Below are positions 14,043 to 33,600 of a stretch of 64,000 bases of DNA, piece after piece. Source of the stretch: Nitrospinaceae bacterium (GTDB lineage Bacteria > Nitrospinota > Nitrospinia > Nitrospinales > VA-1); NCBI GenBank assembly GCA_029261595.1, contig JAJDAZ010000010.1, forward strand, positions 68,152 to 132,151, written 5' to 3'. Both the position numbers and the translations under genes were made by a program. The notes under the pieces are model-generated. The model was not told the DNA's origin, ran no database searches, and worked only from the letters and a program-made list of their open reading frames with translations. The first letter of the stretch is position 1. Each line of letters opens with the position of its first letter.

Positions 14043-15047
14043 ATGACCTCGGCTTTAAAGTCAAAAAAGAAGAGATTGTTATACGTCATCGCCTGGGTCG
14101 TGGCGTCGGCGTGCATTTACCTGGCAGTTGACAAATTTCAATGGGAGTCCGTTCTAGCCGAATTAAAGACCGTCAGTTTTTTCTGGTTGTCCCTGGCCGT
14201 TTTCGGCAATTTTTCAATCCTGATATTGTCGGCGTTGCAATGGCTCAATTTTCTTCCCAGGGACTTTCATTTTGGATTTCGCAAGATGGTCGAAATCATC
14301 GCGCTCATGGTCATGACCAGCAACACCGTGCCATTTTTAGCCGGTCACGCCCTTGCCGTGGTCCTGCTTGCCAAGCGGGCAAACGTCGGACATGCCGTCG
14401 CTCTATCGGTGATCGCATTGGACCAGTTTGCCGAAGGGTTCGCCAAACTCTCGCTTTTCCTTTTGGTCGTCGTTCTCACTCCCATTCCAGACTGGATGCA
14501 ACAGGGATTGCTGGTCGCCCTAACCGCCATTCTTTTGCTTTTTGCGATGCTGTATTTTTTCGCATTTCGGCATCGGCATTTTAAGGTTTTCATGGGCAGG
14601 AAATCCCATCCCCGCTGGTACAAGGTCTGGCATTTTATTTCCCGATGGGCACATCATCTGGAAGGTTTGCGAAACCCCAGGATTTTTGTGATTGGAATGG
14701 GACTGGCTCTGGCAATGAAAGGAGCGGAGGCGTTAGCGATTCTGGCGATTCAAAAAAGCTTCGGGGTGGAGTTACCCCTATGGTCGATTTTTCTGGTCCT
14801 GGCCTCCATCAGCCTGATCACGATGGTCCCCGTGGCTCCCGGCAACCTGGGAGTTTATGAAGCCGCAGTTTTTTTTGTTTACCAATATTTAGGCTTGCCG
14901 CCTGAGCAGGCGTTGGGGCTGGCTCTCATGCAACACCTTTGCCTTTTGGCCCCCAACATCGGGACGGGATACCTCTTCCTGCTATTTCGTAATATTTATC
15001 CCAGGCACCGCCCCCCGGCGGAAGAGGACCCGCGGAAAGCAAAATGA
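14043..15047 (+). CDS. UPF0104 / LPG-synthase-TM 'flippase-like' membrane protein
   Basis: 334 aa with about 8 TM helices. Basic N-terminus followed by '...FFWLSLAVFGNFSILILSALQWLNFLP', typical of the TIGR00374-type family. Confidence 0.65.
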   Translation: MTSALKSKKKRLLYVIAWVVASACIYLAVDKFQWESVLAELKTVSFFWLSLAVFGNFSILILSALQWLNFLPRDFHFGFRKMVEIIALMVMTSNTVPFLAGHALAVVLLAKRANVGHAVALSVIALDQFAEGFAKLSLFLLVVVLTPIPDWMQQGLLVALTAILLLFAMLYFFAFRHRHFKVFMGRKSHPRWYKVWHFISRWAHHLEGLRNPRIFVIGMGLALAMKGAEALAILAIQKSFGVELPLWSIFLVLASISLITMVPVAPGNLGVYEAAVFFVYQYLGLPPEQALGLALMQHLCLLAPNIGTGYLFLLFRNIYPRHRPPAEEDPRKAK

Positions 15048-15048
15048 T

Positions 15049-16200
15049 CTAACCCGTCGCTGGGTTTTTAAGCTTAATGGCCTTCAGGTAAAGCGCATCG
15101 TGCTGCGTCATGACCTCCTTCCAGTCGAAGGGAGGCTCCGTTTCCCGGTTGTTGCGGGCAATGGATTCTCTGAGTTCAGGCTCCAGAATCAAGCGGACCA
15201 GATGGTCTTCCAACTCCTGATCGGTCCGCGCTAAAAATCCCTCCTTACCGGCCCGGATGAATCCCTTGACCCCTCCCCGGATTTTTGCCACAACGGGCAA
15301 CCCTGCGCAACGGGCCTCAAGCGCGGCGATGCCAAACGATTCCCATCGCGTGGGTTGAACATAAATATCCACCCTGGAAAAAACCTTGCGTATCTCCTCG
15401 CGGGTACGGTATCCGGGAAGTTCCACAATATCTTCCAACCCCAAATGCTTTATCTGTTTTTCCAGGGCCGGGCGTTTGGGCCCCTCGCCGATAATCTTGA
15501 CTTTCACCCGGATGTTTTCTGGCAGGCGCTTGAGGACTTTTGGCATTAATCGCACCAGAGCGTTTCCACGCTTTTTGCGGAACAGGCGCATGACGGAAAC
15601 GATCCATATTTCCTCCGGGTCCCTTTCCAAAGGAGTCATCTTCCATTCGCGGATATTCAACGCATTGGTTAAAACGGTGATTTCCCGGTTTTTCACCAGG
15701 GAGACAACGTCCTGAACCACCACCTCGCTCACTCCAGAAAACAACACCGGCCAGCGGGACCATTTAAATACCCAATCCAGAATGGCCAGCCCCCAGCGAT
15801 AGGGACCTATGATGGAATCCCAGGTAATGACTGCGGGAATGCCCAGTTTCTGGCTCAAATAAAGGCTTCCGTAGGAGGTGGGAGAGATAATATTGCAATG
15901 GCAATGAACGATATCGAAAGCTTCTTCCTTTAAAATGCGTTCTATTTTCCTGAACGCGCCTGGCGTATAGACAATACGGAAATTGGGCAATAAAGGAACT
16001 TTCAGGCGATGGATGCGAAATCTTTCTCCTTCTGTCTCCCCCGGAATCGGGGTGATCACATGTACTTCGTGGCCTTCTTTTGAAAGTTGGTCGGCCAAAT
16101 CCCGCATATGCATCTCTGTCCCGCCCATTTGCGGCAGAAACCAGTCACAAACCAGGGCGATTTTTAGCTTATGAGAAGGTAATGGGGAGGAATCGCTCAT
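15049..16200 (-). CDS. GT4-family (GT-B) glycosyltransferase
   Basis: N-terminus KIALVCDWFLPQMGGTEMHMRDLADQLSKEGHEVHVITP. C-terminus IIGEGPKRPALE ... ESFGIAALEARCAGLPVVA (the E-x7-E region). The donor and acceptor cannot be inferred; the protein resembles both the PimA/PimB and PIG-A classes. Confidence 0.85.
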   Translation of the reverse strand: MSDSSPLPSHKLKIALVCDWFLPQMGGTEMHMRDLADQLSKEGHEVHVITPIPGETEGERFRIHRLKVPLLPNFRIVYTPGAFRKIERILKEEAFDIVHCHCNIISPTSYGSLYLSQKLGIPAVITWDSIIGPYRWGLAILDWVFKWSRWPVLFSGVSEVVVQDVVSLVKNREITVLTNALNIREWKMTPLERDPEEIWIVSVMRLFRKKRGNALVRLMPKVLKRLPENIRVKVKIIGEGPKRPALEKQIKHLGLEDIVELPGYRTREEIRKVFSRVDIYVQPTRWESFGIAALEARCAGLPVVAKIRGGVKGFIRAGKEGFLARTDQELEDHLVRLILEPELRESIARNNRETEPPFDWKEVMTQHDALYLKAIKLKNPATG

Positions 16201-16499: not shown

Positions 16500-17177
16500 A
16501 TGACGCTCCCTCGTAATCGTTTTTTCTCAAAATTTTCCTTGGTACCGGCGGTGCTTGCGTTTTCATTGTTGCTTTGCTCGTGGGCTCTGGCAACTCCCGG
16601 GAAATTGCCGGCAACCGATCCGGTAGGTTGGGTGTTCATAAAAGACGAAGCTCTCATTGAAGCCCCGATCTCCGTTGTGGAGCAACATTTCAAGGATGTC
16701 CAGAAAGCGGACGCCATGATTCCCGGTCTGAAAACAAAAAAAATTCTGGAACAACTTTCTGATAGCGAACGCATCGACTACGATCATTATAAGTTGCCCT
16801 GGCCTTTTAAAGACCGGTACACCGTCTACCGGGCCAGGGAAGAATTCCTTTCCCGACAGAAAATACGCATCACCCTCAAATCCTTGGATAACTATTCGTT
16901 TGAAGATAAGGGTAAAGTCGCTGTTAAAATAAGAGAAAGCCATTTTCTATTAAAATCGCTTCCGGGGGATGAGACAAAAACCCAGGTCACGGTTAATCTG
17001 ACAGTGAATCCCGGCGGTTTTTTACCGGTCTGGCTCATTAACTTGAACGCGAAATCCATGTCGAAAGATTTATTTAAAAATTTGCGAAGAAACATCAGAA
17101 AAGAGTTTGCCAGACAAAAACACTTTCAGAAAGATAGTATCAAAGATGCGATAGTGGACTCGGTTTCCAATTTATGA
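16500..17177 (+). CDS. secreted START/SRPBCC lipid-binding domain protein
   Basis: Signal peptide ending SWALA. 'DYDHYKLPWPFKDRYTVYRAREEF' and the overall 200-aa size fit the START-like fold. Confidence 0.6.
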   Translation: MTLPRNRFFSKFSLVPAVLAFSLLLCSWALATPGKLPATDPVGWVFIKDEALIEAPISVVEQHFKDVQKADAMIPGLKTKKILEQLSDSERIDYDHYKLPWPFKDRYTVYRAREEFLSRQKIRITLKSLDNYSFEDKGKVAVKIRESHFLLKSLPGDETKTQVTVNLTVNPGGFLPVWLINLNAKSMSKDLFKNLRRNIRKEFARQKHFQKDSIKDAIVDSVSNL

Positions 17178-17464: not shown

Positions 17465-18373
17465 ATGCTCCAATATAAAGAAGATTTACGAACTCTCTTT
17501 TTTATGTCTGCCATCACCACCCTGTTGGTCGTGCAATGGAAAATTGGCGAGATTCAATTTCTTCTTTATATTCCCAGCCTGATTCTGGCCGTTTCAGTGA
17601 GCATCATGGTTCACAACCACATTCATGTCCCCCTTTGGAAATCTAAAACTCTCAACCTTTTAACCGATTACTGGCTCACCTTTTTTTACGGTTATCCTAT
17701 CTGCGGATGGATCCCGACTCATGTGATGAGTCATCATGTTTTGAACAATCAGGACGGAGACACGTCACGAACCAGTTTAGTAGGAAAAAAGAATAATCTT
17801 TTCACTCTATTGATATATCCAACGGCGACGACCCGGGCTCAATTGCCAACTCATTTTGTTTTCCTGAAAAAACTTTGGGCAAAAAACCGTCGGCGCTGTT
17901 ACAAGTATATTTCACAATTCGCGGTCTTTGGCGGAATGATGCTCATCGCCCTGCTCTGGGATTGGAAGAAAACCCTTCTTTTTATTTTCATTCCACAGCA
18001 AACTGCCGTAACCACAGTCCTCTTTTTTAACTATGTCCAGCACGTTCATGCCGACCGCGATTCTCGCTGGAATCACACTCGGGATTTTATTGGGCGAATT
18101 TCAAACTTTCTGCTCTTAAATAATGGGTTTCATGGCGCACACCACGAGCGCCCCAACCTTCATTGGAGCCGGCTTCCTGAGTTGCACTCAAAAATTGAAA
18201 ATCAAATCAATCCTGTTTTGATTGAACAAAGCATATTGTGGTTCTTTTTCCGTGTTTATATTCTGGGTCTTTTCTTCAAACGTTTTCACACCCAGGATTT
18301 AAGAGAACTGCGTCTCAGTGGACATGCAACGGTCCCTCAGCCTCAAACGGCTTCCGGGGCAGGAGTCAATTAG
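17465..18373 (+). CDS. membrane fatty-acid desaturase family protein
   Basis: Three His boxes (HNHIH, HVMSHH, HGAHH) spaced as in the FA_desaturase family, with 4 or more TM segments. Confidence 0.8.
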   Translation: MLQYKEDLRTLFFMSAITTLLVVQWKIGEIQFLLYIPSLILAVSVSIMVHNHIHVPLWKSKTLNLLTDYWLTFFYGYPICGWIPTHVMSHHVLNNQDGDTSRTSLVGKKNNLFTLLIYPTATTRAQLPTHFVFLKKLWAKNRRRCYKYISQFAVFGGMMLIALLWDWKKTLLFIFIPQQTAVTTVLFFNYVQHVHADRDSRWNHTRDFIGRISNFLLLNNGFHGAHHERPNLHWSRLPELHSKIENQINPVLIEQSILWFFFRVYILGLFFKRFHTQDLRELRLSGHATVPQPQTASGAGVN

Positions 18374-18438
18374 TTGAAATAGGGCCTAAGAGGTTGTGAT
18401 GAACGAATAAAAATTGTACGCGCACATTTAAACCATTT

Positions 18439-19488
18439 ATGGGTAACACACCAAATTTAAAAGCACCGTTGGACTACATTCATGTCAATTCTCCTGAACC
18501 TCATGTTGCACGAACGAAAGAACTTTTAAAAAAATATCCTGAGATTCGGACCCTCTTCGGTCACACCCCTTCTACCGCCTGGTGGACGGTTGGCCTGGTT
18601 TCCCTCCAGTTTTTCCTGGCAATCACTCTTACAAACGCGGCATGGTGGGTGGTTATTTTGGCGGCATGGATTCTCGGGGCATTTATTGAACACGCTCTAT
18701 TTGTCATTATTCACGATTGCGCGCATAATCTGGCCTTCAAGCGGCCCTCCTGGAATAAGGTCCTTGGGATCATCGCCAACTTACCAGGTTTTTTTCCAGC
18801 AGCGATTGGGTTCCGTAATTTTCATTTGCTGCATCACCGAAATATGGGGGAACTGGGTTGGGACGCTGATATTCCCGGTCCTAAAGAAGCCGCCTGGATA
18901 GGAAAAAGCCCTTTTCGCAAAACCCTGAGCTTACTCTTCTTTACCGTAGTCGAAGGTCTCATTCGTCCTGCCCGTTTGAAGAAGGTCAATCTGCTGGATG
19001 CCTGGGGAGTGATTAATGGCATTGCTTCAATTGGCGCGGGCCTTTTGATCCTTTATTTTTTCGGCGGGTCTTCCTTTTTCTATCTGGTTCTATCCTGTAT
19101 GTTTGGAATAGGCCTGCACCCTCTTGGCGGTCGCTGGATTCAGGAGCATTATATATTTCGACCGGGCCAGGAAACCTACTCCTATTACGGTCCCTTAAAT
19201 AAACTGAGCTTCAACGTGGGTTATCATAATGAACATCACGATTTTATGATGGTTCCCTGGTCGCGACTACCCCAAATAAGAAAAATTGCTTCCGAATACT
19301 ATGATGACCTTTTGTATCACACCTCCTGGACGAAGGTCCTTTGGCAGTTTATTCTGGACCCAAATCTGACAGGATTCAGCCGCATGGTTCGCCAAGACCA
19401 TGAAGAAGGAAGCTCTGTAAAATTTTCCACCCAGGAAACCGATAAAATCAACGAGAGCAACCAAAACGCAGTTATTCCGGTCTCATAA
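18439..19488 (+). CDS. sphingolipid delta-4 desaturase (DEGS/Des1)-like protein
   Basis: His boxes HDCAHN, HLLHHR and HNEHHDF. '[25 protein letters not shown]' is nearly identical to my recollection of animal DEGS1 ('[25 protein letters not shown]'). The N-terminus '[12 protein letters not shown]' matches the Lipid_DES N-terminal domain. Confidence 0.85.
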   Translation: [349 protein letters not shown]

Positions 19489-19493
19489 ATATA

Positions 19494-20522
19494 TTACCCG
19501 GCCCAGCGCAGAATAACCTTTCCGGTGGATTTTCTCGTTTCCAGGAAGGCGTGCGCCTCAGCTACCTGATCCGCCGGGTACTCTCCTCCCACTGTCGGGT
19601 TCAGCTCTCCTTTTTCGGCCAAATCCACAACGGTACGCATGCAGCGTTGCAGAACCTCAGGCCTATTCTCGGCAATTTTCAGCATGTTCACTCCAAGAAC
19701 GCATTTGGAGTTTGAGAGAAGCTGAAGACTGTGGACAAACCCGAACCCCAGCACCGTCCGCAGGACGCGAAAAAAATCCCATCGACTACCGGTCATTCCT
19801 GCGACGCCGAAGGCCACGATCCGTCCTCCGGAACCAAGGAGGTTGTAGCCTTTGCGAAAGGTTTTACCGCCGATGGAATCAAAAACCACATCCAATCCTC
19901 TCTCTCCACAAATATTGCGGATTTCTTTTTCAAAATCATTTTGCCGGTAATTGATCGGATGATCCACGCCGATCTCCCGGAGATAATCGAGTTTCGTTTG
20001 CGAACCGGCTGTCCCAAAAACAACGCACCCTCGGCGTTTGGCCATTTGAACCAATGCCGTCCCGACTCCGCCAGCCGCCGCTTGGATGAGAACGTGGTCC
20101 CCGGTCTTAAGGCAAACCATTTCCGCCGCCGCGTACCAGGCCGTACAATATTGCGTGGCCAGCGCTGTGGCCACACCCGAATCCATCGCTTCCGGAATTT
20201 TCACCGTCACCATCGAATGGGTCACCACTTTATCTGAATAACCCCCGAATCGCGTGAAGGCCAACACGCGGTCGCCTGAACTCAATTTCTCAACCCCCTC
20301 ACCCACCCCAATTACCCTGCCCACCACTTCGTAACCCAGAACACAGGGTATCCTGGGTGCATCGGGATAAAGCCCCCGCCTGGCCAATACATCGGCAAAA
20401 TTCAGTCCGGAAGCTTCCACTTCGATCAGGACCTCGCCTTCACCCGGCACCGGGTCTTTTACCTCGCGCATTTCAAATGCGGTATTCGAATTTCCTAAGC
20501 GAATCAAGTAGATCGATTTCAT
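19494..20522 (-). CDS. MDR-superfamily NAD(P)H quinone oxidoreductase / enoyl-reductase-like (VAT-1-like)
   Basis: 342 aa. GroES-like N-terminus (EVLIEVEASGLNFADVLARRGLY). Rossmann segment 'HVLIQAAAGGVGTALVQMAKRRGCVVFGTAGS'. Confidence 0.85.
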   Translation of the reverse strand: MKSIYLIRLGNSNTAFEMREVKDPVPGEGEVLIEVEASGLNFADVLARRGLYPDAPRIPCVLGYEVVGRVIGVGEGVEKLSSGDRVLAFTRFGGYSDKVVTHSMVTVKIPEAMDSGVATALATQYCTAWYAAAEMVCLKTGDHVLIQAAAGGVGTALVQMAKRRGCVVFGTAGSQTKLDYLREIGVDHPINYRQNDFEKEIRNICGERGLDVVFDSIGGKTFRKGYNLLGSGGRIVAFGVAGMTGSRWDFFRVLRTVLGFGFVHSLQLLSNSKCVLGVNMLKIAENRPEVLQRCMRTVVDLAEKGELNPTVGGEYPADQVAEAHAFLETRKSTGKVILRWAG

Positions 20523-20583
20523 ATTCTAATAAATTACGAAACTCCCTGGACGAACCGCCAAATTCCGTCAGGGGGAAAAATGT

Positions 20584-21363
20584 TTACTCAGAAATTTGAG
20601 TTTGACAGGAAGTTGGTTTGGGAGGCGCATCATCTATGGGAATTCCTGATAATTTGGCAACCCACGGGAATCGGCTGATTTCTTCCCCGGTATACCCAAG
20701 ATTAAAAACCGTTGGGCTCAAGGGCACTTGCTTTGACTTTACTAGATAAGTTCCTAATACTCTGTCCGGGAAGGCGCTCGTGATACCGTAATTGCCGTGT
20801 TCATTGTGAAAGTGATGAGACAAATGCAGTTTCTTGAGGGTACGAAAAAATTTCGACTTTGGTGTATAGTTCAAGTGCTCGACACAATGGCAATATTCAT
20901 AAAAGCATGTGTACCACAATCCGGCGGCTAAAGCTCCAGCACAACCGCTGGCCCCGCCAAGCCCCAGCCAGCCCAATGGGGCGGCAATAATAAACACCGT
21001 GGGAATGATCGTGTAGGGCGCGGCAAATAAAACGCTCAGGTCATTCGGGTTTTGGTGGTGATCGAAGTGAATCCGTTTCCACAAAGCCGATGTGAACTGG
21101 AATTGGTAAAGTAAACGTGAGTGCAGTAAATACTGATGTATAAAATATTCTGAAAAAGGATATATAATACAACAGCCGAAAATCGCTACGATCAGCGACC
21201 AGAGGTTTTGGGCCCAATAAATGGATAAACCGGCAAAAAGGCTTCCCAATAGAAAATATAATTGGATCGATGGGTAAGAAATATAGGCTTTAAAAAATTC
21301 TCGAAAGCTTAATTTGTCGAGAAATTTTTCACTTTCCTTCCAATATCCGGATCCAAAAAACAT
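20584..21363 (-). CDS. FA2H/Scs7-like fatty-acid (sphingolipid alpha-) hydroxylase family protein, no cytochrome b5 domain
   Basis: His motifs align one-to-one with recalled human FA2H. EYFIHQYLLH aligns with EYVLHRFLFH. HFDHHQNP aligns with HGQHHKSP. YEYCHCVEH aligns with YDMTHYYLH. LKKLHLSHHFHNEHGNYGIT aligns with [20 protein letters not shown]. Confidence 0.75.
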   Translation of the reverse strand: MFFGSGYWKESEKFLDKLSFREFFKAYISYPSIQLYFLLGSLFAGLSIYWAQNLWSLIVAIFGCCIIYPFSEYFIHQYLLHSRLLYQFQFTSALWKRIHFDHHQNPNDLSVLFAAPYTIIPTVFIIAAPLGWLGLGGASGCAGALAAGLWYTCFYEYCHCVEHLNYTPKSKFFRTLKKLHLSHHFHNEHGNYGITSAFPDRVLGTYLVKSKQVPLSPTVFNLGYTGEEISRFPWVAKLSGIPIDDAPPKPTSCQTQISE

Positions 21364-21587: not shown

Positions 21588-21665
21588 TACGGGTCAGTTT
21601 AATGTTCTCTGCCCATTACTCTGGAATTTTTATTGCAGATTATAGATCAAGTTAAAGAAACAAGA

Positions 21666-22643
21666 ATGGAGCCACCCCTGGAAGAAGATTCAACAAACAC
21701 GATTTTGGTGAAACAATGGCTTCAATGGTGGAAAAGCCGCTCTGTCCTGCAAAAACTTTTGCCGCTTGTCATTTTGGCAGGTTTCTGGGGACTACACATA
21801 AGCATGGGCGGCTTTCGGCCTGACCATCTAGCAGTCGCACTCCTTGTATTCGCTTATTATGGAGGACCCCGCACGCAATGCTATTACAGGTTTTTTCTCC
21901 CCTTTACATTATTCATGGTCCTGTATGACAGCCAGGGTTATTACGCGGAATTGATTCGGGGGAAAGTCCATGTTGCCGAACCTTATCAGTTCGACCTGAC
22001 GTTTTTTGGCATTGAAACCTCCGAGGGAAGGCTGTTACCCAGCCAATGGTTGCAAAAACATACCCATCCGGCCATAGATGTCGTCACCAGTTTTGGCTAT
22101 ATAATATTCGTCCCGGTATGTTTTGGAGTGGCGACTTATTTCCGTTTTTTTTTGGTTTCGGGAAAAAATTCCTCTCTGGAAAAAGAAACGATTATAACCA
22201 AGGCCCATGCCTTGATGTGGGGCATGTGCTGGTTAAACATCCTGTCCTGTTCCACTTATTACTGGTATCCCGCCGCCCCTCCCTGGTATGTCGAAATATA
22301 TGGATTGGGACCCGCACAATTGGACGCAGCCCCCAGCGCGGCAGGAGCTCTACGACTCGATGAGTTTTTCGGCATTGACTTCGTATCCAGTTTCTATTCA
22401 AGAGTCCCAAATGTGTTTGGCGCCATTCCATCAGGCCATGTCGCCTTCCCTCTGCTGTGTTTGTATTTCGCTTTTAAGTTATCGTCACTGCGTGTTTTCT
22501 GTCTGTTGTATTTTTTACTGGTTTGCTTTTCCGCAGTGTATCTAAATCATCACTATGTTCTGGATGTCCTTTGGGGAATCACCTATGCTCTGATTGTGGC
22601 GTGGTTGATGGACAGGTTTTACAAGTCAGGTTCGCAAGAATAA
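21666..22643 (+). CDS. Aur1/Ipt1-type (PAP2_3) inositolphosphotransferase-like protein, i.e. IPC-synthase / sphingomyelin-synthase-like
   Basis: 'YPAAPPWYVEIYGLG ... GALRLDEFFGI ... FGAIPSGHVAFP ... YLNHHYVLDVLWG' parallels recalled yeast Aur1 'FPAAPPWYKILYGL ... GLARIDKLLGI ... FGAFPSLHSGCA ... YLTHHYFVDLMAG'. PAP2 C2 (SGH) and C3 (HxxxD) motifs are present. The ATG at 21666 is preferred over the TTG at 21633. Confidence 0.75.
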   Translation: MEPPLEEDSTNTILVKQWLQWWKSRSVLQKLLPLVILAGFWGLHISMGGFRPDHLAVALLVFAYYGGPRTQCYYRFFLPFTLFMVLYDSQGYYAELIRGKVHVAEPYQFDLTFFGIETSEGRLLPSQWLQKHTHPAIDVVTSFGYIIFVPVCFGVATYFRFFLVSGKNSSLEKETIITKAHALMWGMCWLNILSCSTYYWYPAAPPWYVEIYGLGPAQLDAAPSAAGALRLDEFFGIDFVSSFYSRVPNVFGAIPSGHVAFPLLCLYFAFKLSSLRVFCLLYFLLVCFSAVYLNHHYVLDVLWGITYALIVAWLMDRFYKSGSQE

Positions 22644-22686: not shown

Positions 22687-24273
22687 ATGCCGTTAATTAT
22701 AGGTCCTGGCGGGTGGAAAACAATCGTGTCTGGAGTCCCCAATAAATTGATGAAACTACTGGAGTCGAGATTCAGTTTTCGTTTTCTTTGGATGGCCGGT
22801 GTCATCGCATTGGGCGCGTCGCTGTTTCTCATCTTCTGGTTCTGGCGGGATGCCATTCCCACTGGAAATACCAGCGGAGTGTGGGCCGCTATTGCCAACG
22901 ACTTTGCTGAAGGGGTGCTTTACCGTCCTGTTTTCGATGAGTCCGGTTATGGTGGAACCCGCTACATGCCGCTTTTTTTCGTGCTCTACGGCCTGCTCAT
23001 TTCCTTTTTTAATGATCCGGTCACGGCGGGGGTGTCGTTATCTCTCACCGCCATGATCTTTCTTGACCTTGGCATTTACTTTTTGCTACGGGAAATGGGG
23101 GTCCCAAAATCAATCGCCATTCCCCTGACCTTTCTGGCTCACACATCTTTATCCTTTCAAAAGTTGACTCTGGAAACCAAGGGGGATTTCTTTGCGGCGG
23201 CCATGAATGTCTGGGGCATCCTGTTAGCTCTCAAACATCTGCGGACCCACTCCTGGGCTTTGTTGACCTTGAGCGCCGGCTTCTTTTTAGCGGCGATATT
23301 CACTAAATTCACCACCATCGGCGGATTGGCGGTGGTCACTCTACTTTTTCTGATCCGGAAAAAATATTCCTCCGCCATTTTCCTTGTCGGGCTGATTGGA
23401 GTCTCCACCTTGACCCTGCTTTGGGGAGTCAATGAGATCAGCGAGGGAAGAGCCCTCGCGGCTTTTCAAGCTTGCGCTCTGGGCGGATTCAATTTTGACT
23501 ACGCGATGAAAACCCCACTCTGGTTTCTAACCGTCACCATTCAGGACCCGTTCTTCTTTGCCATGATGTGTCTTGGGATTTATCTCATGACGAAAATAAA
23601 GGCCGAGCAATGGAAATCCTTCGTCCCTCTTTATTTCGCCTTCACTCTGGCTTCGACGTTCGCTATTTTTTCCTCACCGGGAACCGACAGCAATCACCTG
23701 ATCGATTTGCATGTCACCTGTATTTTGTTGATGGCGATTCAGTTCAAGAAAGAGGAGCGGTTTTCAAAAATGTACAATTTTTGTTTTATATTCATAATTG
23801 CCGGCAACCTGTTCATGGCGATCCCCGGAACCCTTTCCATAAAAGATCATCTTGAACTCAAAGGAAGACCGACGCGGGCCACCGTCCAGGCTATCCAGGA
23901 GGAACTGGGCCCGCAGATAAAAAATCTGCTCAGCGAAAATCCACTGGTCCCTCTGCTGATGGGTCAGCGTCCCATCGTTATGGACGCGTTCAGCCTGAGG
24001 CTCATGGCTCAAAAGTCCCCTGAAGTGCAGGCTGATTTCACTCAGAAAATCGAAAATCATTTTTTTGAGGCCATTGTTTTACAGGACTGGTCCGGCGCTC
24101 CCCGGGACCAACTGGAGGATGCCATGGAAAAGCATTCTTCCCTGGGCGTGGATCGATTTTACGGCGAAGTTCATTTCCCACCGGGCTTTTTGGACCTGAT
24201 GAAAAAACATTATTTTCTGAGCTTCGTCAAAAGACCTTATGTGATTTATGAGCCCATAAAACCTTCCCCATAA
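22687..24273 (+). CDS. GT-C fold membrane glycosyltransferase (ArnT/PMT GT39-like)
   Basis: 528 aa with 10 or more TM helices. An acidic motif sits in the first external loop (VFDESGYGGTRYMPLFF). A C-terminal soluble domain of about 150 aa is present. An alternative ATG lies at 22750. Confidence 0.55.
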   Translation: MPLIIGPGGWKTIVSGVPNKLMKLLESRFSFRFLWMAGVIALGASLFLIFWFWRDAIPTGNTSGVWAAIANDFAEGVLYRPVFDESGYGGTRYMPLFFVLYGLLISFFNDPVTAGVSLSLTAMIFLDLGIYFLLREMGVPKSIAIPLTFLAHTSLSFQKLTLETKGDFFAAAMNVWGILLALKHLRTHSWALLTLSAGFFLAAIFTKFTTIGGLAVVTLLFLIRKKYSSAIFLVGLIGVSTLTLLWGVNEISEGRALAAFQACALGGFNFDYAMKTPLWFLTVTIQDPFFFAMMCLGIYLMTKIKAEQWKSFVPLYFAFTLASTFAIFSSPGTDSNHLIDLHVTCILLMAIQFKKEERFSKMYNFCFIFIIAGNLFMAIPGTLSIKDHLELKGRPTRATVQAIQEELGPQIKNLLSENPLVPLLMGQRPIVMDAFSLRLMAQKSPEVQADFTQKIENHFFEAIVLQDWSGAPRDQLEDAMEKHSSLGVDRFYGEVHFPPGFLDLMKKHYFLSFVKRPYVIYEPIKPSP

Positions 24274-24313
24274 AACCCTTTTAATATCAATTGGTTATAG
24301 AGCTTATTATAAA

Positions 24314-24341
24314 GTGACTTTTTCAGGGCGGATAGTATAAT
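24314..24341 (+). promoter_or_regulatory. candidate sigma70-type promoter for the polyprenol-P-mannose synthase gene
   Basis: GTGACT (24314-24319), a 16-nt spacer, then a perfect TATAAT (24336-24341). It lies 36 nt upstream of the ATG at 24378. Confidence 0.35.
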
Positions 24342-24377
24342 GACTGCCTGCTGTTCACAGAAATCCATTATTTTTTT

Positions 24378-25217
24378 ATGCGGAAGAATATGTCGTTGAC
24401 CACCACCTCCAAACGAAACATTGAACGCACTCTGGTCATCCTTCCGACCTACAACGAAGCCGATTCATTGATAAAAGTGGTGGATGCGGTACTGAGTTTG
24501 CCTGAGAATCTGGATATTCTGGTGGTGGATGATTCCTCGCCCGATGGCACCGCGGACCTCGCAAAAAATCATTCCGCTTTTGATGATCGGCTTTTTCTGT
24601 TACAGCGGCCTGGCAAACAGGGGCTGGCCACAGCTTACAAGGAAGGGTTCCAATGGGGGTTGAATAAGGGATACGACGTGTGCATGGAAATGGACAGCGA
24701 CCTTTCACACGACCCGACGGATATTTCCCGGCTGTTGCAGACGATTACAGAGGGAGCCGACATTGCCATTGGCTCGCGATATTTGAATGGCATCAGCGTC
24801 ATCAACTGGCCGCTCAGCCGGTTGCTGGTCAGCATCGGCGCCGGTATTTATACGCGGTGGGTGTCCGGTCTGCCGCTGTCCGACCCGACGGGGGGATTCA
24901 AAGCAATCCACCGGGATGTGATCGAACATCTGGACTGGAATAAGGTGAAAAGCGATGGCTACGGTTTTCAGATCGAAGTGAGTTTTTTTGCTTTTAAAAA
25001 GGGTTTTCTGATTAAAGAGATCCCTATCATTTTTACCGAGCGCCGCGATGGGGAATCCAAGTTTTCCCTGTCGATCGCGATCGAGGCCGCTTTTAGAGTT
25101 CTGCAACTAGGGTGTCTGGAACGCTTTCAAAGTTCCAAAAAAATTTCCTCCCCCTCTTACAATAGAAACCTGTACGAAGCCCCTCCAGGCGAGCCCGCTA
25201 CGCGGGAGGAGGGGTAG
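24378..25217 (+). CDS. polyprenol/dolichol-phosphate mannose synthase (Dpm1/Ppm1-like GT2)
   Basis: LVILPTYNEADSL ... ILVVDDSSPDGTADLA ... RPGKQGLATAYKEGF ... MDSDLSHDP ... GSRY ... GGFKA ... DGYGFQIE. This is a full Dpm1-type motif set. Confidence 0.9.
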   Translation: MRKNMSLTTTSKRNIERTLVILPTYNEADSLIKVVDAVLSLPENLDILVVDDSSPDGTADLAKNHSAFDDRLFLLQRPGKQGLATAYKEGFQWGLNKGYDVCMEMDSDLSHDPTDISRLLQTITEGADIAIGSRYLNGISVINWPLSRLLVSIGAGIYTRWVSGLPLSDPTGGFKAIHRDVIEHLDWNKVKSDGYGFQIEVSFFAFKKGFLIKEIPIIFTERRDGESKFSLSIAIEAAFRVLQLGCLERFQSSKKISSPSYNRNLYEAPPGEPATREEG

Positions 25218-25259
25218 CTTCCTCACGAGCCTCGGAGAATTTCCGAAGGAAAATTCTGG

Positions 25260-26816
25260 ATGAAAAATTCGGCCTCAAGTAGAATTCCACCCGCCAAAAA
25301 TCCGCCGAACGTCAATGCTGGGCCCAGCGACCAGCTGGCCAGCCCCCAGGCGGGTTGGTGGCATTATAAATCCATCCTTTTAGCTTTGGCCCTGCATGCA
25401 TTTTTGTTTCTTTGGCTGTTCCAGTTGGGTTATTCGGCGGAGGAATGGAAGCGCATCAATATAATCGCCAAATCTCCCTCCGTGAAGCCCATGGCGAAAA
25501 CCATCATGCAGGAGCACGGACCTTTCGGTTTTGTGGTCTGGTACTACAGTACCCACTTTGAGGCGCAACTTTATTACCGATACGCCAAATTGACTCTGTA
25601 CGGGGATGTGGATTATTGGACAAGAAACAATAACCTGCAAATCAACAGTGAACGCCCCTTACCTTATCGGGATATCCCTATCGAATACCAACCGGGAGCA
25701 CTCCTAGCAATCACATTGCCGGCTTTATTTGCCGACAATCTTAGAGAGTATAGATTCTGGCTGGCCACCTGGTTCGGGTTCCTTTATATGTTAAACCTTT
25801 TCCTGGGTATCAAACTCGTGACCGGGGGGTCGCCCTCTGTCGGCCAGGCGAAACGTTTGCTCTGGTGGTCTTTCGCCTTTTTAGTCCTTTTGGGCGGAAT
25901 CGTCACCTCCCGGTTCGACCACGTCGTGGTGACCAGCATTTTGCTTTCCACTCTCGTGCTCATCCACGCACTTAAGAAAAGGGGAAAGAAATCTTTACTG
26001 TGGTTTGGTTTTTTTGGGGTGGTCACGTCAATGGGCGTGTTGACCAAAATCGTGCCCGGTCTCATTCTGATTTCAGTGTTGCTGTTTTTGCTCGTACAAC
26101 ACAAAAATACGCCACGCTGGGCGGAAGCCATGGCTTCGATTGCGGGATTGGGAGCGGGACTGGTTTTTCTGAATGCTGTGTTTTATGGTATTTTCGGTCC
26201 CGGTTACTGGGAAAGCTTCACTTATCATATGGACCGGGGAGTCCAACAGGAATCTGCCTATGCCGGGATAATGTTGCTGGCTCAATTGGTGGGCATTGGC
26301 ACCGTGACCCATGACGTTTCCTTTGGGTCGTCCAATGTGATCTTCGCGCTCGCCGACCAGGTCAAACTCATTTCCCCCTTTCTATTTATTGGAATCGTGG
26401 CTGTTCTTGTTCGGAGGGTTTGGCGCCAGCCTCAAGCGGACGCCAAGGCGGAAGAGTCGGGGCATTTTGTTTGCAGTCAAATCTTATTGCTGACCCTGAT
26501 CCTGCTTCTTGCGTTCATGCTCACCAATAAGGTATTTTCCCCACAATACATGATTTGGGTCGGGCCGTTGCTCGCCATCTTGGTGGCTGTCCACAAAAAC
26601 ATGTGGAAAATCGGCATACTATTTTTAGTCGCGACCACCATGACCCAGGGAATTTTCCCTCAGCTTTATAAACTCATGAATCTATTTCACCCGGCCATGG
26701 TGGTTCTTTTGAACCTGCGCAATGCTTTGCTCATCGTGATTCTGATAATGCTGATTCGGGATCTGCCAGTTTTGTTGGAAAAGAATCACTCCTCCCGGCT
26801 TTCCCCGGAAAGCTGA
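25260..26816 (+). CDS. polytopic membrane protein, possible GT-C glycosyltransferase (DUF2029/GT87, PimE-like)
   Basis: 518 aa with 11 or more TM helices. The first loop 'LYGDVDYW...PYRDIPIEYQPGALLAITLPALF' resembles the GT87 signature (D...Y....pY..f.YPP). The assignment is tentative. Confidence 0.45.
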   Translation: MKNSASSRIPPAKNPPNVNAGPSDQLASPQAGWWHYKSILLALALHAFLFLWLFQLGYSAEEWKRINIIAKSPSVKPMAKTIMQEHGPFGFVVWYYSTHFEAQLYYRYAKLTLYGDVDYWTRNNNLQINSERPLPYRDIPIEYQPGALLAITLPALFADNLREYRFWLATWFGFLYMLNLFLGIKLVTGGSPSVGQAKRLLWWSFAFLVLLGGIVTSRFDHVVVTSILLSTLVLIHALKKRGKKSLLWFGFFGVVTSMGVLTKIVPGLILISVLLFLLVQHKNTPRWAEAMASIAGLGAGLVFLNAVFYGIFGPGYWESFTYHMDRGVQQESAYAGIMLLAQLVGIGTVTHDVSFGSSNVIFALADQVKLISPFLFIGIVAVLVRRVWRQPQADAKAEESGHFVCSQILLLTLILLLAFMLTNKVFSPQYMIWVGPLLAILVAVHKNMWKIGILFLVATTMTQGIFPQLYKLMNLFHPAMVVLLNLRNALLIVILIMLIRDLPVLLEKNHSSRLSPES

Positions 26817-27442
26817 TTTTTGACATAAATGATCCTTTGCACCGCGGTGTAATTGCTGAGAACGGCAATAATCAATATGGTTCCTATCATAATGTATTGG
26901 CCCACAACAGGAATGCCCGCAAGCAGGGACCCCAGAATTATCAGGGCGATGCGTTCGGGCCGTTGCATCCACCCGACCTTGCAATCGACGCCCAAACCTT
27001 CGGCGCGGGCGCGGGTGTAGCTGACCATGAACGAACCGGACAAAGCCAGAATAATAATTAGAACCATGACGGACCCAAGAAACGACTCCGGATCATTCGC
27101 AGACAAGCGGGAAAAATGCCAGGCCAATCCCAGGAAAACAAACAGCTCGCTGAACCGGTCGATGGCGCTGTCCAGAAAAGCTCCAAACGAGGAAATTCTC
27201 CCAGTCAGCCTGGCCATTTGACCGTCCAGAACATCACAGGTTCCCGCCAGAATCAGGACTGCCCCGGCGCAGAAGAAGGCGCCGTTTGCGTAAATCAGCC
27301 CGGCGATCATACTCAGCGACAAACCCACGAGGGACAAGGCATTGGGGCTCACGCCCAGGCCCGAAAGAAAACTGCAAAAAGGAGCCATCGCCCGGACAAA
27401 GCCTTCCTTGATCTTTTCGCTCAATAGGGAATATTCCGGCAT
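26786..27442 (-). CDS. CDP-alcohol phosphatidyltransferase, PgsA1/AIPS-like (possible phosphatidylinositol-phosphate synthase)
   Basis: Canonical D-G-x2-A-R-x8-G-x3-D-x3-D motif (DVLDGQMARLTGRISSFGAFLDSAIDRFSE). 'SYTRARAEGLGVDCKVGWMQRPERIALIILG' parallels recalled M. tuberculosis PgsA1 'SYIKARAEASGLRGDGGFIERPERLIIVLTG'. ATG at 27442 (TTG at 27448). The 3' end overlaps the convergent upstream gene by 31 nt. Confidence 0.9.
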   Translation of the reverse strand: MPEYSLLSEKIKEGFVRAMAPFCSFLSGLGVSPNALSLVGLSLSMIAGLIYANGAFFCAGAVLILAGTCDVLDGQMARLTGRISSFGAFLDSAIDRFSELFVFLGLAWHFSRLSANDPESFLGSVMVLIIILALSGSFMVSYTRARAEGLGVDCKVGWMQRPERIALIILGSLLAGIPVVGQYIMIGTILIIAVLSNYTAVQRIIYVKNQLSGESREE

Positions 27443-27490
27443 CCGCAATCAACCTTGGAATCCGATGAAAGCGCGGTTCGCGCTTCCCTC

Positions 27491-27652: not shown

Positions 27653-30600
27653 TCAGGAGTTTTCCTCATCCGGCTCCTCTTCGTCGTCCTCCTGGTTTTT
27701 AATTTCCTCCAGTAACCAGGGGACCATATGGTCGATACTGGGTCCACCCAGAAAGCGCACCACGGGAACGGTGATTTGTAAATCCGTTTCAATCCTGACA
27801 ATCAACTCCATTGCCATTAAGGAATCCAGCCCCAGATCGGCGAGCGGGAGATCCATCTCAAGTTTGGAGGGAGCGAGTCTCAATACCTTGGCGATCGACT
27901 CTTTAAGATGTTCGGCAAGAATCTGCGGTCGCTCATCCGGGAGTGCGGCTAAAAGTTTGGGCCGGATGAGTTCATCGCCTTCCCCATCACCTGCACTTTC
28001 ACTCTGGGCGCCATCCCCCTGCACATAGGAAAACCTGGCAGGGTTCGAGCCCGACCGGCTCAAGGAGAGGAGTTTCTTCCAGTCCACCGGAAAGACCCCG
28101 ATCTGTACCGGATTTTGATGCATCACCCGGCCAAGCATTTCCACCGCCTGCCGGGACGACAGACTCATCAGACCTTGATTCTCCATGCTTTTGATCAATC
28201 CTTGTTGCCGGGCGGCGACTCCCACACCGGATAATGGCCCCCAGTCAATCACCTGCCCGGAGAGACCCTGGGCGCGGCGATACCGGGCCAACGATTCCAG
28301 GAACGCATTGGCGGCGACGTAGTTTGCCTGACCCGGATTGCCCATCACGTTTGCCACCGAGGAAAACAGGGTGAAAAAGTCCAACTGTTTGTCCTGAGTC
28401 TGCTGGTGCAGGTTCCAGGCGCCCTGAACTTTCGGACCCATGACTCGTTTTAGCCGTTGCGGGGTCAGATGAATCAAAAGACCGTCGTCGAGCACCGCCG
28501 CCGCATGATGGATGCCCTTAAGTGGTGGCATGCTGGATTCGATCTCTCCCAACACACGGGTCACATCTTCCTGCAAAGAAACATCGCCCCGAACCACCTG
28601 CACCACCGCTCCCGTTTCTTCCATCCGGGCGATGGCAGTCTTGGCTTCTATCGATGGTGTTTCACTGCGGCCCATGAGTGCCAGATGCCGCGCTCCCTGC
28701 TGAACCATCCACTCGGCAATCGCCAGGCCAAAACCACCCAGTCCTCCGGTGATCAGATATGAAGCCTCCCGAGAAAACTTCATGGAAGCCTCTTCGTGTC
28801 GGATGATTTTCAGATCAGGTTCTTCCAGGGATAAAACCACCTTCCCCATGTGCCTGCCCTGGGCCATGGTGCGAAAGGCACTCACTGCATTGGAAATTGG
28901 GAAAATTCTATGTGGAAGTGGATGGAGTGATCCTTCTTCCATATGTCGCATGATTTCTATAAATATAGCGCGGAACTCATTATTCAGGGACTTGAAGCCT
29001 TCTTTGATTTCGACCATGGTGATGAAGGAAATTCCCTTCAAAAAGGGCCGCAAGCCAATCTTATTATTTTCATAGATATCGCGTTTGCCGATTTCCAGAA
29101 AACGGCCGAGCGGTTTCAAAATTTCAATGCTCTTGAAAATAAACTTGCCCGCCAGCGAGTTCAAAACCAGGTCAACGCCTTCACCCTGAGTTTGTTGCAT
29201 AATTTGCTCTGCGAAGGCCAGGGACCGCGAATCAAAAATATGCTCCACTCCCAGGTCGCGGAGGAAACCTCTTTTTTCGTCATTGCCCGCAGTGGCGAAA
29301 ACCTGGGCACCGGCCAATTGGGCAATCTGCACCGCCGCCATCCCCACTCCACCGGAGGCGGCATGGATCAGAACCCTTTCCCCTTTTTGCATTTTACCCG
29401 CCGAGTGCAGCATGTACCAGGCGGTTAAAAAAGTCACCGGAATGGTGGCCGCATCGGAAAATCCGATCTTGGGAGGTTTGTGAACCGTGGCAAACGTCGG
29501 TGCCAACGTATAAGAACCGAAGCACCCTCCCCCTGCAAGGGCCGCCACTTCGTCGCCCACCTTAAAATCCGTCACGCCTTCGCCCACGGCACTCACCACG
29601 CCCGCGCACTCCAATCCCAGAGTCTCCCAGGTGTTATCGACACCTTCCAACTCTCCCGGAAGCAAGCCCATGCCAATCATCACATCGCGAAAATTAAGAC
29701 CCGCCGCAAATACCCTGATTTCCAACTCCCCCGGACCGGGCTTCGAACGACTCACAGATCTGAGCTGGAAATTTTCCAGGATTCCGGGAGCGCCTATATC
29801 CATCACAAACGCGGGAGGTTCCTCATTATTCTCCTGAATCAAACTATCGACACAGGTTTCTTCGGGTTCAGGGCGATGCAGACGATAGACAAATCTCCGA
29901 TCCTGACGATAGGCAACTTCTTCTTCCGCATCTTCCTGCCATAATTCTTCGAACAGGGCGCGGGCCGGAGGGTCCCCTGACTCAGGATCAAGGTCCACCA
30001 GCTTGCACTTGAAATTGGAATGCTCGGACTGGATCACCCGGCCAATTCCCCAGGCAGGTGCCTGGGCCACGGAAATATTTTTTTCCTGGGAGCGCACCGA
30101 CTGCCCCCCCTGGGTGATGATAAAAAGCCGAGGTGTTTTGGACCACTTGGCATTGGCCAGTTCGTTGACGAGATGAATCGCGCTCATACCGCCTACCGCT
30201 TCCGCCTGCTGGAGAGAGTCGGGAGATAAATCTCCTGTTTCCGGCAAGTCCAGATTCCATAAGTGAACAATGCCGCGCAAGGCCGGTGTTTTCTTGCGCA
30301 CAAAATGGATCAGGTCTCCCATATCTTCCAGGGACTCGGGACGAATCTGGATCGGGCCGTCTTCATCTGCTTTAAATATTTTCCCTGGAGTCACCAGAAA
30401 AGGATTTTCGCCAAAGTTTTTTAATGATTCGGCCAGGGCCTGTCCTGTGCCTTTGCCGTCACTGAATATTATCCAACTGCCCTTTTTACCGGGTTTGGGT
30501 GTTTTAATTTCTTCTGAGGAATCCTCAACGTAGACTTTTGGACCTCTTGCGACAAAAAACGTTTGCAAGGAATGGGAACGCTCTTTGGAACCTGCCCATT

Positions 30601-33600
30601 TCGACACGTTTTCAAAGCCTGCGCCCTGCAACTCTCTCGAAACATCACTGCCGTCTATCAATGGGAGGGCCGGCACTTTTTCCGCTCCGGTATCGACTTC
30701 ACAAGACCCGAGGATCAACCTCAACCAGTTTGAAGTTGAGGTCCAGTCCAACTCCAGCAGGAGACCCCGGGATGCAAGCAACTCCAAAAGATTCCGCGCA
30801 ACTTTTTGAGGTTCTTCTGTCCCAAAGTTTAAATGCGACCCGAGGATCAAATCAAAAGAATGAGGAATAAACTCCTGCGTGGCTGGAGAAACGTTTAGAT
30901 CCAGCGTTTGAAACTCGACGAATGAAAATTCGCGCAGTTTTTGCGTGGCTTTTTCAAGCCCTGCCTCGGAAGATTCCGTATGAATGTATTCCACCCGGTC
31001 CTCGGGGCAGTGGCGAAGAAAGGCAGGGGCCATCGCTCTCCCGGTCACGCCCCCTATTCCCAGCACCCTTAACTTTCTGCCTTCCGGCAAATGACCGAGC
31101 AGTGAAGAAACCACTTTTTGCGCCAGCGAATTATAAATCTGCGAACTCAATGCGCTCTGCTGGAGTCGATCAAAAATCGCATCCTGTTCCAGAAAATTTG
31201 CTTGCAGTCCTTCGCTTTCGCCTTTAAGGATGCCCGCAAGGTTTTCCCCCGCAATCCGTAATAAATTGAGTTCGCCTAAAAATGCAGGAAATTCGCCGAT
31301 CAGCGATTTCCATAGGGTCTGCGGATTATCAATTTTTGCGGGAAGGGAACCCATCTGCCACTCGGAACCTTCCTTCTTTAAAATTCCTTCGTTTTTAAAA
31401 ATACAAAAACAACTCTCCAGATACGCGGAGTGTTTGGGGACCAATTGGAACTGCTCGATAAAAGACGCGGTGGAAAACCCGGTCAGCGAATCAAACTCAG
31501 GAGCGAGATTTTTTAAAGCACTCAGCACATAAGCCGCACCCAGGCGATTGAATCGGGGCTCGATGGAATTATAAAAATCGGCCAAATGGAGGGCCTCGGT
31601 CAAACCCTCCATCTCCTTTTTCAGGGAGGATACGATTTGATCGGGTGTTGGGAGAAAGGCGGCAGAACGGCATTGCCTTTCACCTACCTCTTCAACACAA
31701 GGTTCCCAACGCCACTGATACAGCCAGTCATCCGGGTTCAGCAGGTCCCGCCCCCGGGATGGATTCAAGGCTCGAAAATGAAGCCCCTGGCACTCGACCC
31801 AGACTTTCCCCGAGTCATCGAACATCTTGATGTCCACCACCGCCTGACTGCTGTCAAATTTCACCGCCTGCACGTGGACCCAAAGAGGACTTTCGGGCGA
31901 GCCATGAAATCGAACCCGGTCCGCCGAGATCGGTAGGAAAAGTTTTTTTGTGAGCGCATCCACGTCCAAAGCCAATAACGCGGAAACCTGAAACGCCGCA
32001 TCCAGAATGGCGGGATGGATCTGATACCGCTTCGCATTTAGCCCAAGTGCTTTGGGACTTTTAAGCAATGCCAAAGCCTCTCCATCTCCGCGCCAGGATT
32101 TGTCGATCCCCTGAAACGCAGGACCATAGTCCAATCCCATTTTTCGGAAGGTTTCATACAGTTTATCCGACAACACTTCATTTACGCATCGGCTCTTAAT
32201 GTTTTCCAGATCGATTGTTTCGGGATCACCCTGGTTAAATGGATCGCCCAGTGTTCCACTGGCATGCAAGGTCCAGGTCTGATTGGTCCGGTCGGAAAGA
32301 CTGTGGATTTTGAAGGACGCATCGATGGGGTCGTGGGTCATCTGGGTTTTTAGACCCCGGTTTTTTGGAACGACCAACGCATTATGAAACTCGATCGATT
32401 CCAGAACACATGAAACGTCTTTGTTGACCTGTTTGGCCATGGCCAGAGCCGACTCGACAAACCCTGCGCCTGGGAAAATGAGGATTCCCTTGACCGCATG
32501 ATCGCCAAGATAGGTCAACTCGCGCTTGTCGATTCGGGTTTGCCAGTGGCAGGATGAAGATTCCATCGCCCATCCAAGCAAAGGATGTACATCGGGGGCC
32601 AACGGGTCGAACCCTTTCTCTTCTCTCTCATGCCAATGGCGCTCCCTTTGCCAGGGATAGTACGGCAATGAAACGCAATGCCCACCATGCGGAAAAATCG
32701 GATTCCAATCAATCGATCGCCCCAGGCTGTAAAGGTTTCCCAGCGAATTCACCATCACTTTGCGGTCGTCCTCTTTGTGGTTTAAAGAAGGCAGAACCGT
32801 TCCCTCGCGTTTTAAATGGGAAAGGCATTCGGAGATATTGGCTCCCAAAACGGGGTGCGGGCTCAATTCCAAAAACGTGGTGTACCCATCGTTGACCAGT
32901 TCTTCAGTCGCTTTATAAAAGCGGACGGGGTTCCTGACATTGCCCCACCAGTAATCGGCATCCAATTGATCTCCGCCCTCTAGTTTTCCGCTTACGGTGG
33001 AATAAAAGGGAATTGAACTTGACTGGCACTGCAGGCCATTCAAGGACTCCACCAACCCCTGACGGATGGAATCCATTTGATGACTATGAAAGGCGTAATT
33101 GACTTTCAGGTAGCGACAGAAAACTTCCTGTTGCTGAAGGGGTTCGATCATTTTTTCCAGAGCTTCGGGATCTCCTGAAACGGTGACGGATTTGGGACTG
33201 TTCACCGCCGCCAGGGAGATTTCATTTTCCCGGCCCTTGAGCGCTTCAGCGATTTTCCCTTCAGGATAACCGACGACCGCCATCTTCCCCTTGCCTGCCA
33301 TTTTGTGAAGCCAGCGCCCGCGATGATAAACAACCCGAACCGCCTCTTCCAGGGAATAAATCCCCGCCACATAAGCCGCCGCCGCCTCCCCGATACTGTG
33401 CCCTATGACGGCAGAAGGTTCGATGCCCCACGAGCGCCATAAATCGGCCAGAGCCACCTGAAGAGAAAAAAGTGCGGGCTGGGTAATATGAGTTTCATTG
33501 ATTTTGGATTTGTTTTCATCCGCCATCAATTCTTCCCACAAAGACCAGTCTGCATGGCGACTGAACAGTTCGTCGCAACGCTTGATCACCGCGCGAAATA

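Follow-up and report, generated by a model that had tools for sequence, protein, structure and literature searches.

The bacterial sphingolipid genes identified so far include Spt, bCerS and CerR, together with some head-group enzymes. No bacterial enzyme that tailors the ceramide backbone, whether by delta-4 unsaturation, C4-hydroxylation or acyl 2-hydroxylation, is characterised in the literature we searched, and that literature holds no description of sphingolipids from the Nitrospinota. The Spt-bCerS-CerR arrangement has been described for bacterial ceramide synthesis (PMC11087976, PMC11334938), and members of the DEGS family are treated as delta-4 desaturases (PMC5037126). Here we describe a DEGS-family gene at positions 18439-19488 (plus strand) of a 64,000-nucleotide stretch of Nitrospinota DNA, referred to below as the window. 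It encodes a 349-residue membrane di-iron enzyme, combining Lipid_DES and FA_desaturase domains, that is predicted to be a dihydroceramide C4 desaturase/hydroxylase. The window lies on contig 10 of a genome of 3.78 Mb in 71 contigs that is 90.7% complete (G000).

We regard it as likely that the product of this gene is a functional, bacterial DEGS/Des1 enzyme acting at C4 of dihydroceramide, that the gene belongs to a tailoring cassette, and that its origin is bacterial.

The DEGS-like protein and its family among bacteria

Its sequence shows the protein to be a true and complete representative of the DEGS/Des1 family. The open reading frame is intact and begins with ATG. The Lipid_DES domain (PF08557) is matched over residues 12-44 with 46.8 bits, against a Pfam cut-off of 23, and the FA_desaturase core (PF00487) over residues 68-293 with 109 bits, against 29.7. 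The three His boxes are HDCAHN (92-97), HLLHHR (129-134) and HNEHHDF (263-269), and within them H92 and H96, H129, H132 and H133, and H263, H266 and H267 are invariant in an alignment with named eukaryotic members and bacterial relatives. An earlier note on this DNA had pointed to the Lipid_DES-type N-terminus and the three His boxes, and both are borne out; the Lipid_DES model, whose failure to match it had named as grounds for giving up its reading, does match.

The named eukaryotic comparators are a Mya arenaria DES1-like protein, Mustela DES2, a nematode protein and a cluster containing the green alga Picochlorum. Whole-protein identity to these is 37-43% (BLASTP to the Mya protein gives 41% over 315 residues, E 1e-88), compared with 51-57% to the proteins of Bdellovibrionota and Myxococcota and 66-82% within the Nitrospinota. 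Local similarity is much higher at residues 245-269, a 25-residue stretch that is identical at 23 positions in the Mya protein and at 21 in Mustela DES2. The earlier note had called this stretch almost identical to human DEGS1; near-identity to animal enzymes stands, as measured on these named database sequences rather than on human DEGS1 itself. Just before the EHY motif, residues 230-233 read GGRW or GARW in the window's bacterial clade where the named eukaryotes have (A/S)GHF, so that a histidine conserved in eukaryotes is replaced by arginine in this clade.

An AlphaFold2 model, obtained with an input alignment of 41 sequences, has a pLDDT of 93 and a pTM of 0.91 and predicts the fold of a membrane di-iron desaturase/hydroxylase. 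Its top solved-structure matches in Foldseek include the membrane di-iron enzymes AlkB (8f6t/8sbb) and SCD1 (4zyo), and the desaturase-like chains 8xks_K/8xqw_M. The latter (TM ~0.57) rank ahead of AlkB and SCD1; they come from the Orf2971/Ycf2-FtsHi motor complexes of the Chlamydomonas chloroplast, of which they are subunits, and presumably have a desaturase-like fold. A sequence search of the PDB gave no match for the DEGS-like protein or for the second desaturase encoded upstream of it, and neither sequence nor structure search found a solved DEGS structure there.

A search of 5.8 billion proteins found 5804 homologues. Among the best 120 of these, FA_desaturase is present in all and Lipid_DES in all but one truncated match of 211 residues; many of these best matches lie on long contigs, and some are labelled Bdellovibrionales, Saprospiraceae or Pseudomonadota. 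Both domains are found in all 41 bacterial relatives that were scanned, and an exhaustive search of 50%-identity representatives gave 424 clusters at E <= 1e-30. The closest named relatives come from 'Nitrospinales bacterium' metagenome-assembled genomes (MAGs) of the GTDB family to which the window's genome belongs, and many of the bacterial homologues already carry the automatic annotation 'sphingolipid delta-4 desaturase'. Whole-genome surveys, with DEGS genes scored at E <= 1e-40, detected the family in 28 of 201 sampled Bdellovibrionota (~14%), 27 of 201 Myxococcota (~13%) and 6 of 120 Nitrospinota genomes; within the Nitrospinota it is confined to two of 30 genera. Because of these many homologues and the survey counts in three phyla, DEGS is a well-populated bacterial accessory family and no singular oddity; the earlier suggestion that such likeness to DEGS is unusual for bacteria is not supported.

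The cassette, its cluster and the predicted ceramide pathway

Synteny comparison places the gene in a cluster that is common to the DEGS-bearing Nitrospinota. The genes around it are as follows.

14043-15047, plus strand: flippase-like LPG_synthase_TM protein, conserved cluster member
15049-16200, minus strand: GT4 glycosyltransferase, conserved cluster member
16500-17177, plus strand: START/SRPBCC-like lipid-binding protein (weak Pfam matches, none reaching cut-off), conserved on the left side of the cassette
17465-18373, plus strand: second FA_desaturase-family gene of an uncharacterised subfamily, a 302-residue open reading frame called as 289 residues, 87.8 bits, variable cassette member
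18439-19488, plus strand: the DEGS-family gene
19494-20522, minus strand: MDR/PIG3-type NAD(P)H oxidoreductase, convergent with the DEGS gene
20584-21363, minus strand: FA_hydroxylase-family (Scs7-like) protein, 259 residues, variable cassette member
21633-22643, plus strand: PAP2_3 protein resembling phosphoinositol dihydroceramide (inositol-phospho-ceramide, IPC) synthase, conserved right flank of the cassette
within 22687-27448: 528-residue membrane protein, GT2 and PMT_2-like membrane transferase, conserved cluster members
26786-27448: PIP-synthase-like CDP-alcohol phosphatidyltransferase, conserved cluster member
27653-35353, minus strand: highly reducing type I polyketide synthase (PKS)/FAS-like megasynthase (KS-AT-DH-MT-ER-KR-ACP), 2566 residues, conserved beside the cluster
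35555-36691, plus strand: GNAT-like protein, 378 residues, candidate bacterial ceramide synthase, paralogous to the gene found between Spt and CerR in most Nitrospinota

As the earlier note had it, a second and more generic desaturase lies directly upstream of the DEGS gene; it is a separate protein with marginal similarity to the DEGS-like protein (E 5e-5). Only 5 bases separate the stop codons of the DEGS gene and the MDR reductase. Among solved structures the Scs7-like protein matches yeast Scs7 and no other (E 1.7e-10), with the similarity covering the His-motif core, and the PAP2_3 protein scores 135.6 bits against the NCBIfam model of phosphoinositol dihydroceramide synthase, for which the cut-off is 480. 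The gene context is bacterial, as had been noted earlier, with LptF/G, histidine kinase and CHASE2 cyclase genes in the surroundings. The window has no tRNA or Rfam features, and promoter and terminator scans around the cassette gave results no better than shuffled sequence.

Distinct differences are seen between congeners. Two of them, G044 (96% complete) and G047 (92%), keep the whole cluster without DEGS, the PAP2 gene following the START-like gene after ~150 bp, whereas in G000, G046, G048 and the sister genus g4 the DEGS and MDR reductase genes lie between these two. Because G044 and G047 lack exactly this block, with its flanks adjoining, window positions 17465-21363 are a four-gene indel (gain/loss) cassette. 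The second desaturase occurs only in G000 and G046, and the Scs7-like gene in G000 and g4; the MDR reductase accompanies DEGS wherever the stretch of Nitrospinota DNA extends far enough to reveal it, and not in other phyla. In g4 (L001:11826-13701), DEGS and the MDR reductase are separated by additional genes, which encode a TetR regulator, a DUF5069 protein and a short-chain dehydrogenase, so that the content of the cassette differs between genera. When the cassette junctions were set against the empty sites of the congeners, the coding flanks aligned but the intergenic DNA was not alignable, and no scars or repeats were definable. Two distant bacterial DEGS loci (L047:11194-12072 and L048:3878-4975) also include another FA_desaturase-family gene at a distance of a few kb, recalling the pair in the window. 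We propose that the second desaturase, DEGS, the MDR reductase and the Scs7-like acyl 2-hydroxylase form a 'ceramide-tailoring' set. The locus is a clean natural experiment, since close relatives differ by exactly this cassette, and it yields a short list of candidate tailoring genes.

Genes for the presumptive substrate are found elsewhere in the genome, on one contig:

contig 68, 69706-72249 (L020:9707-12253): Spt-like and CerR-like genes

The Spt-like protein, an alpha-oxoamine synthase of 447-449 residues, scores best against serine palmitoyltransferase models (472 bits, cut-off 640), above its own BioF and Kbl scores, and a true Kbl is encoded separately. Directly after it comes a CerR-like gene of the NAD-epimerase family. 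Across the phylum the Spt and CerR-like orthologues usually flank a GNAT-like gene, as in G072 (C1), where Spt (495792-497081), GNAT (497126-498211) and CerR-like (498210-499184) genes follow one another; this matches the Spt-bCerS-CerR arrangement known from bacterial ceramide synthesis (PMC11087976, PMC11334938). An operon of Spt-like, GNAT (bCerS-like) and CerR-like genes is present in 15-16 of the 30 sampled genera of Nitrospinota, about half of them, which suggests that ceramide synthesis is widespread in this phylum of nitrite oxidisers.

In the window's own genus the middle GNAT gene is missing from the Spt-CerR operon, and the GNAT gene of the cluster (35555-36691) is the sole copy of its family detected in the window's genome. 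This gene is 33-39% identical to its Spt-adjacent paralogue, and its orthologues are restricted to five genera, the same five in which the IPC-synthase-like PAP2 gene occurs. Its product may be an additional ceramide synthase, one adapted to what the neighbouring PKS makes. Because Spt-like, CerR-like and bCerS-like genes are all present, a dihydroceramide-type substrate is plausibly made in the organism, as judged from its gene content. The likeness to a sphingolipid enzyme proposed in the earlier note is in keeping with this context, in which the IPC-synthase-like PAP2 and the Spt-, CerR- and bCerS-like genes likewise point to sphingolipids.

Proposed activity

We envisage the DEGS-like protein as an integral-membrane, O2-dependent di-iron oxidase that would act at C4(-C5) of the long-chain base. 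Its substrate would be an N-acylated sphinganine (dihydroceramide or head-group derivatives of it), supplied by the organism's own Spt/bCerS-like/CerR pathway, and its product a sphingosine-type ceramide formed through delta-4 desaturation. The cassette would work inside a conserved cluster for IPC-type glycolipids. Homology and context incline us, if only slightly, to delta-4 desaturation of dihydroceramide as the reaction. The MDR reductase is, speculatively, a candidate electron partner; the roles we can envisage for it are electron supply or double-bond reduction.

The main alternative, rather doubtful in our judgement, is that the protein is chiefly a C4-hydroxylase, or a bifunctional enzyme like DES2, giving phytoceramide-type bases. 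Among the named members of the family is mammalian DES2, which is bifunctional, and the presence in the cluster of an Scs7-like 2-hydroxylase and an IPC-synthase-like PAP2 fits the fungal and plant theme of IPC with 2-hydroxy acyl chains; moreover, no Sur2-type C4-hydroxylase is recognised in the cluster, where the only FA_hydroxylase gene matches Scs7. Phytosphingosine-type bases are also reported from the lipids of Bacteriovorax stolpii. Against this, the characterised members of the DEGS family are mostly desaturases, and the clade of the window protein has no specific relationship to DES2. Nothing in the sequence itself separates the two activities; we nevertheless favour desaturation.

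A substrate other than a sphingolipid, such as a glycerolipid acyl chain, a PKS product, a carotenoid or an N-acyl amino alcohol, is improbable; Lipid_DES would then be no more than a family signature. This explanation could appeal to the large PKS nearby and to sub-threshold NCBIfam matches to CrtW, DesA and CrtR, but these fall far under their cut-offs (42 against 350 and 26 against 500 for the first two). As specific candidates, the carotenoid ketolase/hydroxylase families CrtW (42.2 against 350) and CrtR (21 against 475) and the acyl-lipid desaturase DesA (26.2 against 500) were rejected on these equivalog scores. The gene lies, besides, between a lipid-binding protein and an IPC-synthase-like gene, and two further lines of evidence argue for a sphingolipid substrate, one from co-occurrence and one from an independent operon.

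The first is a near-perfect co-occurrence with Spt-like genes in two phyla. With Spt-like matches scored at E <= 1e-95, all 28 DEGS-positive genomes of the Bdellovibrionota sample have one, compared with 71 of the 173 DEGS-negative genomes; for the Myxococcota the figures are 21 of 27 and 45 of 174. The Fisher p values of 3e-10 and 3e-7, respectively, overstate the significance, as they ignore the relatedness of the genomes.

The second comes from a distant family member, P0171, which is 40% identical to the window protein. It is encoded in a tight, co-directional operon of short-chain dehydrogenase, DEGS, GT4, CDP-alcohol transferase and PAP2_3 genes (L091:116-5843, on a contig of Logan ERR13954283 with a guanine-plus-cytosine (GC) content of 0.38), adjoining a divergent 1073-residue fusion gene with an Spt-like domain. 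This is the functional set of the window, assembled independently.

Several observations, beside the statistical one above, weigh against the activity that we favour. Six DEGS-positive Myxococcota genomes have no Spt-like match at the threshold, although five of the six have only divergent family members, and outside the Nitrospinota most bacterial relatives, the closest ones included, are not clustered with Spt or other sphingolipid genes; both points lend something to a non-sphingolipid substrate. The Spt-like, PIP-synthase-like and IPC-synthase-like proteins all score under their NCBIfam equivalog cut-offs. No cytochrome b5 domain (PF00173), the eukaryotic electron donor, is detected in the 90.7%-complete genome. 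Finally, because the literature searched contains no characterised bacterial member of the family, the assignment of substrate and regiochemistry leans on homology and context.

Phylogenetic origin and comparison with known systems

A maximum-likelihood tree of 100 sequences was built under LG+C20 PMSF, with support given below as ultrafast bootstrap/SH-aLRT; it is unrooted. Most of the clusters are unnamed metagenome proteins, so tips were labelled by the gene context on their contigs, and many tips in the half that holds the eukaryotes carry no label. The second-desaturase family was considered as a root and rejected as too distant (E 5e-5). All Nitrospinota sequences form one clade (100/100). 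It is nested, together with two Bdellovibrionota genomes of which one is a Bacteriovoracaceae MAG, in a clade of 14 sequences (100/99), and this clade is in turn part of a larger one of 36 sequences, made up of Bdellovibrionota and Myxococcota (99/83). The named eukaryotes are all elsewhere, in a clade of 40 sequences (100/99). Forcing the Nitrospinota to group with the named eukaryotes to the exclusion of the named Bdellovibrionota and Myxococcota is rejected by the approximately unbiased (AU) test (log-likelihood difference 75.6, p-AU 0.015). The window protein is therefore no orthologue of eukaryotic DEGS1 or DES2 but a member of a separate bacterial subclade.

Nested position and patchy distribution point to a single acquisition, from a Bdellovibrionota-like donor, by the ancestor of the two Nitrospinota genera as the simplest history; the direction of this transfer between bacteria we infer, since the tree is unrooted. 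Recent horizontal acquisition from a eukaryote (animal, fungus or protist), a possibility that the earlier note had raised, is very improbable. The patchy distribution in the Nitrospinota would suit it, as would the 23 of 25 identities to an animal enzyme near the third His box, but the gene sits deep in a bacterial radiation, the whole-protein identities rise from eukaryotes through Bdellovibrionota and Myxococcota to Nitrospinota, and the grouping that it calls for is the one rejected by the AU test. GC content gives no sign of recent transfer either (0.469 in the cassette, ~0.49 in its flanks). The same note had set as a contrary outcome a place within a large bacterial clade with characterised non-sphingolipid substrates: the clade is indeed large and bacterial, though no member of it is characterised, and every indirect line of evidence speaks for a sphingolipid substrate. 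The gene adds a new member to a known family, in an informative setting, and is no evidence of transfer from eukaryote to bacterium.

That the gene is a decaying or non-functional remnant is scarcely credible: it is lost from two congeners and has no obvious Shine-Dalgarno motif upstream of its ATG, yet the frame is full-length with every catalytic histidine conserved, the predicted fold is of high confidence, and the orthologues in five other Nitrospinota genomes (66-82% identity) are intact and free of stops. The gene, intact and of the bacterial DEGS family, is probably functional, to judge from its coding sequence.

Several lineages with a bacterial gene context are found at or near the base of the clade that holds all the named eukaryotes. 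P0131 (L052) adjoins a LytTR response regulator and an RND pump, P0185 (L092) adjoins RF-1 and a tRNA synthetase, and P0171 (L091) lies in the bacterial sphingolipid operon described above. Bacterial as well are the lineages that branch deeply in the opposite part of the tree (P0130, P0140, P0142 and P0157). Because bacterial-context lineages sit both at the base of the eukaryote clade and beyond it, the relationship between bacterial and eukaryotic DEGS is old and intermixed; with P0131, P0171 and P0185 at or beside that base and more bacterial diversity outside, eukaryotic DEGS may nest within bacterial diversity.

Two linked readings follow, which we offer jointly and tentatively: that bacterial DEGS genes are the genetic basis of unsaturated or 4-hydroxylated bacterial sphingoid bases, and that eukaryotic DEGS arose within the bacterial radiation. 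If the first is true, the Scs7-like hydroxylase and the IPC-type cluster would enable some Nitrospinota to make fully 'eukaryote-style' tailored glycosyl-inositol-phosphoceramides. The locus predicts distinctive lipid biomarkers for this marine nitrite-oxidiser phylum. The broad occurrence of DEGS in bacteria bears on a bacterial origin of eukaryotic ceramide desaturation.

Comparison with known systems brings out what is shared and what is particular to this locus. With eukaryotic DEGS1/Des1 and DES2 the window protein shares its architecture of two domains, the three His boxes, which are identical, the predicted membrane di-iron fold class and a sphingolipid context; along its whole length it is 37-43% identical to named animal and algal members. 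It differs in its separate subclade, in the clade-specific GGRW in place of (A/S)GHF, in having no cytochrome b5 partner detected in its genome, and in a substrate that would come through the bacterial Spt-bCerS-CerR route rather than that of KDSR and CerS. The DEGS proteins of Bdellovibrionota and Myxococcota, uncharacterised and automatically annotated as 'sphingolipid delta-4 desaturase' or 'fatty acid desaturase', match it in identity (51-57%), architecture and clade, and in the Spt-like enzymes of their genomes. In those phyla the gene lies outside any sphingolipid cluster, whereas in the Nitrospinota it is part of an indel cassette within an IPC-type cluster.

The cluster itself recalls the inositol-lipid, or phosphoinositol dihydroceramide, pathway of Bacteroides thetaiotaomicron (NCBIfam NF052609, NF052561), with a matching PAP2 protein and PIP-synthase-like CDP-alcohol transferase, although the window proteins score under the equivalog cut-offs (135.6 against 480 and 144.9 against 350). 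The Bacteroides lipids are, as the name indicates, dihydroceramides, and the models matched include no desaturase. The neighbour at 20584-21363 resembles yeast Scs7 and FA2H (PDB 4zr0/4zr1) over the His-motif core; unlike them it is a protein of 259 residues without a cytochrome b5 domain, and it is encoded as a gene of its own, separate from DEGS, in the same cassette.

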